Source: a virus
Lineage: Duplodnaviria > Heunggongvirae > Uroviricota > Caudoviricetes
Length of the DNA: 15,362 bases
Virus record (IMG/VR): IMGVR_UViG_2721755498_000003
Direction: 5' to 3' (one strand)
Part shown: piece after piece, positions 1,659 to 4,130 of the stretch
How positions within the stretch are numbered: position 1 is the stretch's first letter
Layout of the letters: the number at the start of each line of letters is the position of its first letter
Translations under genes and position numbers: made by a program
Notes under the pieces: model-generated
The model's database searches: none
What the model was told of the DNA's origin: nothing
The model's input: the letters and a program-made list of their open reading frames with translations, nothing else

Positions 1659-4130
1659 TTAAGAATCAGCCTGACTCGGGATCAGTTTTTGCCAGATAAC
1701 TGAAACGTATTTTGCCTGGTAACGGGCGTCATCAAGTGCATTATGGCGCTCACCTTCGAATGGAATAGCCGTTCTGGCATCGAAGTCTATGGCTTTCCCC
1801 AGCTCAACGATTGTGCGTACATCGCGATCGTTGTAGTAACGCCACGGGCAGGGGATCCCCTGCCGTTCGTATGAACGGCGCAAAATCGTGTTGTCGAAGT
1901 TGGCTCCATTTCCCCAAACCTGAACAAAAAATTCACCGGAGTTTTCGTCGATAAATTCCCGCAATTGTAACAGTGCATCATCTAACGGGATTTCATCGGT
2001 CATAATGGCAGATTGCGCTTCGCGTGATTGCTTAAGCCACCATTTAATGGTGTCCCGATCAATGACTCCGCCAGCAGTTTCCAGATCGATAGTCTTACTA
2101 TATTCCGGTCCCATATCTCCGGTTTGCGGATCGAAAAATATTGCACCTATTGAGATGATCGGGGCATCAGGATTTTTTCCCATGGTTTCAAGGTCGATCA
2201 TTAGATGGTCACACGTCCTGCTGGTGGATGTGATTTCGTGATGACCGTTCACCTTAATTGGGTGATCTGCCGTCTCGCCAGTTTCATTATCGCTATTGTG
2301 ATGCTGATTGCCGCCAGTGTTCTCCTTGTGTGGATGTTCAGCGCCTTCCATTTCCTCCGGATCATCTTCCTGAACTTCAACCTGATACTCTTCATCGAAT
2401 GTTTCTTGGTATGTTGCGTCGCCCATCACCGCGCCACAATCAGGGCAGTTGCCGCCGCCGGTCTGACCGCAGGCGGTGCAGACTTTTTCCACTTCCTGTT
2501 GCGCCACTGGTTCAGGCTGTTTCGTTTCTGGCTCGTTTTGTAACGCATTTGGACTGTTTTGTTCCGCTTTTTGGTAGTTCCGTTCCGATTCATGCTGGTT
2601 CTGGTTCACAGAATCGCGGGTCTGGATCCCCTTAACCCATTTCGGATCATTCGGGTCACTAATCCCTTCAACAAATTCACCACGTGATGCAGCAAGCAAC
2701 TTATCGGCGTCAGGCTGGCTGATATTGGCTGCCTGCATAATTTTGTTTACTTCGTCAGCGGTAACTTTTATCGGCTCTGGTTGTTCTGAATCTTCAGCGG
2801 TATCTACATTTTGCGGTAAGCCCGTGTATGTGCCATTTTTTCGGGCAAAATATTCTTCTTTTGTGATTTCAGTGGCGCCAGCAGCCAGTGCCTTATCCAG
2901 ACCAGAAAGTTTGTTTGCGCGACCGTATTTTTCTCCGTCCTTATCTGCGAAGAGGAAATAGAACGGCCCCTCACGCTCTACAGATGGTTCAGCTTCCGGC
3001 GCGGTTTCATTTTTTGGGATATCAGATACCTCAGTTTCCACTGCATCAGTTTGTGTTTCTGATGACTGGAGAACATCAACAGTGCCCAGGTCTGTTTCTT
3101 CATTCTCAAACACGCCCTTTGTCGTCAGGTATTCGCAGATATATTTGTTCAGTGCTATGGGATCTTTGTGAATGTCGATCGGACGCTCACGGACAAGGCC
3201 AAAAATAGTCTGGCGGTCGTAGCGAAGGGCATCAGGCTGTTTGCGCATTGATGCCGAGATACGCTTCCAGTCTTCGCGGTCGTTGTCGATAACTTCTTTT
3301 TTTGCCCAGCGATGGATGCTGCCGTCAATGTTTCCGGCATCCACATCACCAGGCCAGAGAGCGTAGGCCAGTTCGTCATCCAGTGTTTTCCATGTCTGCT
3401 TGTATTCGCGATGAATGGCAGCAATGACCGGGCTGATTTTTCCTGTTGAATTTTCAGTGTACTGTTGATTGGTTCTGGCGCGGGCGAGATCAACAACAGA
3501 CGTGTATTTTCCGGTTTCCTTGCGTTCACCTTCGCGACGTTTTTTCCAGATGCGCATCTCTGCCTGAATTTCGGGCCATTTAGCACCAGGAATACATTTA
3601 TGCTTAACCCACCCAATGGCGTGCAACTTAAGCTCCGGATACATGGCGTTAACTTCTGGCATTTTCATCAACGCTTCAACGATATGTCCGTCGAATGTTG
3701 CCATGTCTTCCTGCAACAATTCCTGTGCGCTAATAACCATATCAACGGTGATGTTTTCACATGTGTCGAACTTAACCATGACAGCGTTCTGTACTTCAGG
3801 GGCCAGCTTGTCAAAAGTGACGTTCATCGGATCGGATTCAGTCTCAACCGGGACAAAAGAAGCAGACTCCTCATCCCAGCGGTTTTCCTGCATATATTCA
3901 GCATCCCATGAATCGAGGGCAGGGCGGGGTATGCCAGGTTTATCCTCGCAGACAATAAATTTATAAGCGCAGTCCTGAGCAGCCGGATAATGTTCCAGGA
4001 ACTGCCAGTGAAATTTTGCTCGAGCACGGCGTTCGTCGCCAGCTTCAATGGCTGTGGCTACAGCCACAGCGCCTTCTTCCCTTGTTGCCAGTTCGTCAGG
4101 AATAGCGGCGCAAATAAAGACTTTACTCAT
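1659..4130 (-). CDS. RecE-like exodeoxyribonuclease VIII-family protein with C-terminal DnaQ-like DEDDh 3'-5' exonuclease domain
   Basis: 823-aa ORF with GAGG RBS upstream of the ATG at 4128-4130. Central segment [30 protein letters not shown] matches the conserved RecE core as I recall it. C-terminal ~180 aa carry DEDDh motifs ([10 protein letters not shown] ... FDNT ... [10 protein letters not shown]). Long Asp/Glu-rich linkers and a C-x2-C-x7-C-x2-C zinc ribbon ([15 protein letters not shown], nt 2436-2480). Confidence 0.8.
   Translation of the reverse strand: [823 protein letters not shown]

Follow-up and report, generated by a model that had tools for sequence, protein, structure and literature searches.

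A RecE/YdfE-like lambdoid prophage protein that ends in a predicted DEDDh exonuclease domain and has no detectable annealase partner

Introduction

What does a recombination-type exonuclease do in a lambdoid prophage when its nuclease domain is not that of RecE and no annealase gene lies beside it? This question is raised by a 15,362-nucleotide stretch of DNA (IMG/VR record IMGVR_UViG_2721755498_000003; "the window" throughout), which contains a minus-strand open reading frame (ORF) for a protein of 823 residues. The 15.4-kb window is 99.8% identical to Escherichia coli chromosomes over its entire length and is a Qin-like lambdoid prophage adjoining rspB. The ORF is the sole recombination-type gene of its module and occupies exactly the position of the recombination genes in lambda and Rac; it is also among the commonest prophage genes of E. 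coli. Two questions converge on it, namely the role of the non-catalytic part of RecE, and the means by which lambdoid phages that lack both an annealase and a RecBCD inhibitor manage to recombine and replicate. Natural domain swaps, in which the same scaffold carries another nuclease and is followed by another partner, make the role of the RecE body experimentally approachable. An earlier reading of the window, hereafter the original prediction, described a RecE-like exonuclease with a DnaQ-type 3'-5' exonuclease domain and no annealase partner. Our analysis supports this interpretation: the protein has a RecE-like body and a DEDDh-type C-terminus, and no annealase was found beside or within the gene.

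Results

The protein is a mosaic of YdfE, RecE and DEDDh parts

We are nearly certain of the identity and architecture of the 823-residue protein, which is a mosaic of a YdfE_N region, an acidic RecE-like middle and a C-terminal DEDDh domain. At the C-terminus, Pfam family PF16473 (Rv2179c-like) matches residues 642-813 with E=7e-67 and 224.9 bits (gathering threshold 27), covering profile positions 2-177 of 177. The DEDDh motifs are MIDLET at 644, NGANFD at 741 and HNALDD at 796, and the predicted catalytic residues D646, E648, D746, H796 and D801 align with D7, E9, D119, H186 and D191 of T4 DexA. The DexA structure was solved by Kang et al. (NAR 2025; PMC12153337), whose list of catalytic residues was used for this alignment, and the DexA entries 8KEL and 8KEN are the only sequence matches of the 823-residue protein in the PDB. 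In an AlphaFold2 (AF2) model of residues 346-823, residues 638-823 fold with a predicted local distance difference test score (pLDDT) of 80-93. A Foldseek search with this domain gave DexA (8KEL, E=1e-9) as the best match, followed by RNase T, Orn and Cap18, with DnaQ domains and REXO2 among the further matches. Profile and model thus agree on a predicted DEDDh-type domain of the RNase H-like DnaQ fold, as had been read from its motifs, and not on the PD-(D/E)XK nuclease of RecE; the family of the latter, PF12684 or DUF3799, spans residues ~600-866 of RecE and is detected by Pfam in K-12 RecE (E=4e-28) and not in the 823-residue protein. Stand-alone homologues, gp30 of phage epsilon34/c341 and gp34 of phage LLS, are 55-57% identical to residues 640-822.

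The middle of the protein resembles RecE. Over 366 columns, BLASTP aligns residues 262-627 with residues 278-592 of K-12 RecE at 39% identity (E=1e-61), and identity rises to approximately 85% in the last ~150 residues of the RecE-like region. Nucleotides 1425-1867 of the ORF (443 nt) are 78% identical to K-12 recE at the DNA level. The 30-residue motif that had suggested a RecE core, residues 477-506, corresponds to residues 452-481 of K-12 RecE with a single substitution. The resemblance is real, but the word "core" has to be dropped: the shared region is the non-catalytic, largely disordered N-terminal and central part of RecE and not its catalytic core. This large non-catalytic part of RecE boosts linear-linear recombineering. 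The NCBIfam RecE equivalog model NF007259 reaches 282.7 bits against a cut-off of 1269 and matches at profile positions 271-600 only. Homology to RecE stops at residue ~627 (RecE ~592), inside the acidic linker of residues 567-637, and it is exactly at this linker that the DEDDh domain takes the place of the RecE nuclease.

The likeness to Rac RecE comprises the central region with its RGEFV(E/D)... motif, a CxxC...CxxC element and acidic linkers, and sibling variants of the 823-residue protein even carry the PF06630 N-terminus of RecE. In contrast, the protein itself lacks the PD-(D/E)XK domain, recT does not follow its gene, and PF06630, which Pfam finds in K-12 RecE and in the sibling from phage 813R8, is undetected in it. 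The polarities also differ, since RecE degrades DNA 5'-3' and the 823-residue protein is predicted to act 3'-5'.

The long acidic linkers of the middle region (fractions of aspartate plus glutamate, D+E, of 0.21-0.33) are predicted by AF2 to be disordered. They flank a confidently modelled alpha/beta island at residues 385-440, which is kept in relatives of the scaffold. The two helices bearing the RecE-identical motif have pLDDT values of 50-69, and the CxxC-x7-CxxC motif is modelled at similarly low confidence (~50). Residues 1-345 were modelled separately, using an alignment of 12 sequences from diverged relatives that are 24-44% identical, with a mean pLDDT of 84 and a predicted template modelling score (pTM) of 0.35. 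Three sub-domains can be distinguished, an alpha/beta one (1-96) and two helical ones (101-205 and 240-340), and their relative orientation is uncertain because of the low pTM.

The gene is widespread and is the intact form of ydfE

The K-12 ydfE pseudogene, which lies in the same place after ydfD in the Qin prophage, corresponds to the first 767 nucleotides of the gene with 99.7% identity. The 823-residue gene is the intact form of ydfE; the K-12 copy differs in being cut by IS2, with loss of the middle region and the nuclease domain. PHROG 2082 matches residues 1-822 of the 823 with 1829 bits. The representative of the 90%-identity cluster, P0001, is 94% identical to the protein and stands for 23,183 member sequences; it carries PF27430, PF27432 and PF16473, the first two named YdfE_N and YdfE_C in Pfam, and the assignment of PF27430 and PF27432 to the 823-residue protein comes through the precomputed annotation of P0001 and not through direct scoring. 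Among 5426 complete E. coli genomes, 3536 (~65%) contain the gene at a coverage of at least 80%, and a single genome can have as many as 10 matching places.

Close relatives are annotated in complete phages. The protein is identical at 814 of 823 positions (99%) to TRITO_27 of phage Tritos, labelled "exonuclease VIII", and 99.6% identical to an "exonuclease" of phage HannyBb. The layout int-xis-gene-ydfD-dicB-DicF of Tritos is that of the window, and there is no difference of substance between the two, except that the window copy sits in a decayed prophage. In a survey of 314 lambdoid phages, Zheng et al. (Genome Res 2025; PMC12315714) report DnaQ-like 3'-5' nucleases in lambdoid Rec modules and make Tritos the prototype of a class that has a nuclease and lacks genes for an annealase, a single-stranded DNA-binding protein (SSB) and an anti-RecBCD function; each of its four members carries four or more Chi sites on the top strand. 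A chimeric RecE/DnaQ architecture is not described in the main text of that survey. The gene type is already catalogued and published, so that its recognition here serves as background and is no discovery. Its frequency and earlier description reduce the novelty of the original observation and leave its correctness untouched. What is new here is the mosaic map of the family and the link between nuclease cassette and downstream partner, both described below.

No annealase is detected beside or within the gene

Queries of four RecT proteins, one Erf and one SSB gave no tblastn match with E<0.1 in the window, in the 45-kb genome of HannyBb or in the 813R8 locus. A PHROG scan of all early-left ORFs returned DicB, YdfD, YdfC and YdfA-type proteins and regulators only. 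Both scans bear out the earlier statement that no annealase gene lies in the 72-nt gap between the gene and xis or upstream of it, where ydfD is found. The complete HannyBb genome likewise contains no annealase anywhere, by annotation and tblastn. As in Tritos, the window has Chi sites, and no single-strand annealing protein, SSB or anti-RecBCD gene was seen in its early-left operon, where Gam and Abc2 were not searched for with sequences of their own.

An annealase might instead have been hidden in the N-terminal part of the protein. We reject this possibility, since the model of residues 1-345 has no annealase fold and its search against BFVD gave no match at E<=0.001. A "RecT family" entry in the BFVD results is noise (E=0.95, TM 0.11). 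In addition, residues 136-336 are weakly similar to the RecE proteins of HK225, Gifsy and SPN3UB (27% identity by tblastn); since RecE proteins of the Gifsy/HK225 type need RecT, this argues against an annealase within residues 136-336.

One scaffold carries different nucleases with different partners

Homologue searches were saturated by E. coli or Klebsiella sequences of more than 88% identity, and 50%-identity representatives were used instead. An exhaustive HMMER search of 1.84 billion such representatives found the scaffold (residues 1-640) in 249 clusters, which makes it a narrow family; the members with a visible source come from E. coli and Klebsiella. When eight segments were mapped on the long members among these representatives, all combinations of N- and C-termini were present. 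The YdfE-type N-terminus is joined to the DEDDh domain in the 823-residue protein and in homologue P0242, and to PD-(D/E)XK in P0251. The RecE-type PF06630 N-terminus is joined to the DEDDh domain in P0248, P0261, P0364 and phage 813R8, and to PD-(D/E)XK in classical RecE. A third class has a C-terminus of ~300 residues without a Pfam match, which hits phrog_7838 ("exonuclease"). Exchange is also visible at the DNA level: nucleotides 1361-2472 are 97.9% identical to the 813R8 gene and the 5' halves are unrelated, the 813R8 N-terminus being of the RecE type with PF06630. The breaks in identity with the 813R8 gene and with K-12 recE are sharp recombination joints.

What follows the gene changes with the nuclease. 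The PD-(D/E)XK versions in Rac, HK225, mEp237, Klebsiella phi12.4 and P0251 are all followed by recT, and the protein encoded downstream of P0251 is 42% identical to HK225 RecT (E=3e-59). The DEDDh versions in the window, HannyBb, 813R8, Tritos, P0364 and P0261 are all followed directly by xis and/or int. The versions of the third class, which have a YdfE_N plus YdfE_C scaffold (L008:4974-7672, L018:3501-6217 and L019:3501-6421), are all followed by a Sipho_Gp157 gene. We conclude from these comparisons that one scaffold carries interchangeable C-terminal nuclease cassettes and that the downstream partner changes with the cassette, a co-variation seen in approximately 15 contexts, which are not a census. 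The third-class proteins may be the "RecE-2" proteins of the lambdoid survey, which are said to have no recognisable nuclease domain (PMC12315714).

Some further observations concern the phages compared here. Locus L008 is deposited as "Stenotrophomonas phage vB_SmeS_BUCT708" (OM816834.1), and its 710-residue scaffold protein is 100% identical to P0121, which occurs on 87 Klebsiella pneumoniae contigs; this identity makes the stated Stenotrophomonas host doubtful. Phage LLS (L012:1593-4564) encodes its stand-alone DEDDh homologue of ~185 residues directly before xis-int, without a Rec module, and in c341 (L004:3778-5858) a homologue of the same size lies within erf-ssb-exo-abc2. Both share the early-left operon position with the 823-residue gene and differ from it in being single-domain proteins rather than a fusion. 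The nin-like region of HannyBb (L006:33011-33697) encodes a 228-residue protein that matches Pfam QueH, an epoxyqueuosine reductase (E=2e-65). A QueH gene is unusual in a lambdoid phage, and the corresponding place in the window is taken by a frameshifted methyltransferase gene.

Discussion

Proposed trimming of 3' ends in phages that would rely on host recombination

The function that we favour, with a probability of roughly 0.4, is that of a 3'-end-trimming DNA exonuclease of lytic growth, in phages that rely on RecBCD and RecA of the host. The gene would be expressed only when the prophage repressor is relieved or upon infection, and the observation that recE-lacZ fusions of the Salmonella Gifsy prophages are silent until induction (PMC3121763) fits such lytic-cycle expression. 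The RecE-type scaffold would then bring the enzyme to the place or partner of RecE, probably DNA ends, where the DEDDh domain would trim nucleotides off the 3' ends. Rather than making 3' tails for an annealase, the nuclease would be an accessory end trimmer, removing 3' tails or flaps so that the ends suit RecBCD, which requires near-blunt ends, or ligation. Recombination-dependent concatemer formation would be left to the RecBCD-Chi-RecA pathway of the host, as suggested by the combination of no annealase, no RecBCD inhibitor and Chi sites on the top strand. The window has two top-strand Chi sites (2220-2227 and 9152-9159), where 0.23 would be expected per strand, and its bottom strand has none; HannyBb has five top-strand and two bottom-strand sites, against 0.69 expected per strand. 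Recombination by host RecBCD-Chi-RecA has also been proposed for lambdoid phages without an annealase (PMC12315714). The stand-alone homologue of c341 further supports a role of this kind, as it lies inside a Rec module (erf-ssb-exo-abc2).

Several points weigh against this proposal. The excess of Chi sites in HannyBb is moderate and roughly equals the density in the E. coli genome. Blunting of 3' tails for RecBCD loading may take place, but this step is one that we infer from the end requirements of RecBCD. The lambdoid survey remarks that DnaQ-like 3'-5' nucleases "curiously, usually inhibit homologous recombination" (PMC12315714). Because PF16473 is named after an exoribonuclease, its presence does not establish whether the substrate is DNA or RNA, or whether it is single- or double-stranded. 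A 2023 review lists the N-terminal region of RecE as "of unknown function" (PMC11611040), so that a target shared with RecE is an assumption. Finally, the literature searched yielded no study of the function of ydfE or the 823-residue protein.

The cassette data suggest a wider proposal, which we put forward as speculation that is rather unlikely to hold in full. The RecE/YdfE body could serve as a general adaptor, delivering exchangeable nuclease cassettes to a single cellular target, each with a partner of its own: PD-(D/E)XK with RecT, phrog_7838 with Gp157, and DEDDh with none. The DEDDh versions would then define an annealase-free pathway of 3'-end trimming, and a large, very widespread class of lambdoid phages would depend on RecBCD-Chi-RecA of the host. 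If so, the family would amount to a natural experiment on the role of the N-terminal two-thirds of RecE.

Alternative functions

An improbable alternative, although one with a direct precedent, is exclusion or defence of the HREX type, in which the lysogen would be protected because the DEDDh domain digests the modified (5-hydroxymethylcytosine, 5hmC-type) DNA that superinfecting T-even phages bring in. T4 DexA is the nearest solved relative, and EcD, a stand-alone DexA homologue from E. coli, digests 5hmC-containing T4 DNA, and its leaky expression is enough to protect cells (PMC12153337). The domain belongs to the same DEDDh sub-family as DexA and EcD and keeps all catalytic residues. A protective function could also explain why the gene has stayed intact while the prophage around it decayed, and why it occurs in 3536 of the 5426 complete E. 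coli genomes. However, W152 and D169 of DexA, reported as necessary for 5hmC recognition and cutting of T4 DNA (PMC12153337), correspond here to Tyr (RYYNDRD) and Thr (DARTAIPF), an assignment that depends on the alignment; LLS gp34 and c341 gp30, unlike the 823-residue protein, retain both the W and the D. EcD is a small stand-alone protein starting with MIDTET and DexA is a stand-alone protein as well, whereas the domain here is the C-terminus of an 823-residue scaffold and lacks the extra loops of DexA. PADLOC gave only a generic match to a CRISPR-associated DEDDh protein (E=3e-5). The gene is the most distal one in a lytic operon under repressor control, and no promoter of its own was found: a promoter/terminator scan returned no sigma-70-like minus-strand promoter directly upstream of it, which is weak evidence because the scan returned no more sites overall than shuffled sequence would lead one to expect.

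The exact replacement of the RecE nuclease at the linker could be taken to mean that the protein is a recombination exonuclease of reversed polarity, which resects 3'-5' and exposes 5' tails. These would be joined by an annealase provided in trans, the RecT or Bet of another prophage in the same cell, or would anneal spontaneously, as in the case of the poxvirus polymerase exonuclease. Stand-alone homologues adjoin Erf and SSB, and the up to 10 copies or relatives per E. coli genome imply that several lambdoid prophages reside together. We nevertheless consider this unlikely, as none of the seven DEDDh-type contexts inspected showed a cognate annealase, nor did the whole HannyBb genome, and known exonuclease-annealase pairs are mutually specific and act on 3' tails (PMC11611040). 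It is less probable again that the enzyme acts on RNA or small nucleotides, degrading host RNA, nanoRNA or, as anti-defence, nucleotide second messengers. The family name comes from the Mycobacterium tuberculosis exoribonuclease Rv2179c, and the fold also matches Orn, REXO2, RNase T and the CBASS-associated Cap18; yet the closest match in both sequence and structure, DexA, is a DNA exonuclease, the fusion partner and the neighbourhood are of the recombination type, and the gene neighbourhood gives no defence or anti-defence signal. Pseudogenes and an insertion sequence (IS) fragment in the window prophage, together with the IS2-disrupted K-12 copy, would suit a functionless passenger gene decaying in a degraded prophage. 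This is highly improbable, given that the ORF is of full length, 99-99.6% identical to its counterparts in the complete phages Tritos and HannyBb, and has all five predicted catalytic residues intact.

The locus and its neighbouring genes

In the leftward early operon (ydfABC-dicF-dicB-ydfD-gene), the 823-residue gene comes last, directly ahead of xis-int (Table 1). Beyond ydfD, the minus-strand order is dicB, the DicF small RNA, ydfC, ydfB, ydfA and the gene of a DicA-type repressor, past which the rightward genes begin with cro, a cII/YdaT-like gene and an O-like replication gene, followed by others. The decay of the prophage is evident in RefSeq annotation from the frameshifted methyltransferase gene and an IS1202-like fragment.

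Table 1. Positions in the window of the 823-residue ORF, its parts and selected neighbours
Feature	Position	Strand	Evidence or remark
823-residue ORF, ATG to TAA (stop included)	1659..4130	-	same ORF annotated in RefSeq
Shine-Dalgarno GAGG, 10 nt 5' of ATG	4141..4144	-	read from sequence
YdfE_N region, residues 1-340	3111..4130	-	AF2 pLDDT 84; precomputed Pfam PF27430
Alpha/beta island, residues 385-440 (GPFYFLF...ARKNG), flanked by acidic linkers	2811..2978	-	AF2 pLDDT ~93
Helical segment, residues 455-505, with RecE-identical 16-residue motif	2616..2768	-	RecE alignment and AF2
Zinc-ribbon-like CxxC-x7-CxxC, residues 551-566 (C551, C554, C562, C565)	2433..2480	-	aligned to RecE 517-532
Acidic, His-rich disordered linker, residues 567-637	2220..2432	-	D+E fraction 0.27
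Predicted DEDDh 3'-5' exonuclease domain, Rv2179c/DexA type, residues 638-823	1662..2219	-	PF16473, AF2/Foldseek
Chi octamer GCTGGTGG	2220..2227	+	inside ORF, at linker/DEDDh domain boundary
int	20-1315	-	first in minus-strand order
xis	1335-1586	-	directly downstream of the ORF; gap 72 nt
ydfD	4224-4415	-	directly upstream of the ORF; one leftward operon
DicF small RNA	4775-4826	-	Rfam match, 76.7 bits
DicA-type repressor	5870-6277	-	beyond ydfA

Two structured elements flank the gene. Within the gap between the exonuclease stop and the xis start lies a perfect 8-bp inverted repeat, GCCGGTTG ... CAACCGGC, with a 14-nt loop and without a T run (1617-1646, minus strand). The interval between ydfD and the exonuclease gene (4130-4224, minus strand) has a weak hairpin with a 5-bp stem (4186-4173), followed by GGGATTTGTT; it scored as terminator-like, and such sites are no commoner in the region than in shuffled sequence. 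Elsewhere in the window, a full-length Rfam match to the sok antitoxin RNA (104 bits, 10274-10445, plus strand) lies just upstream of a 446-residue ORF (10519-11859, plus strand), according to RefSeq a truncated IS1202-like ISEsa1 transposase. The sok match represents a second hok/sok-type locus beside the annotated hokD (~13759-13914).

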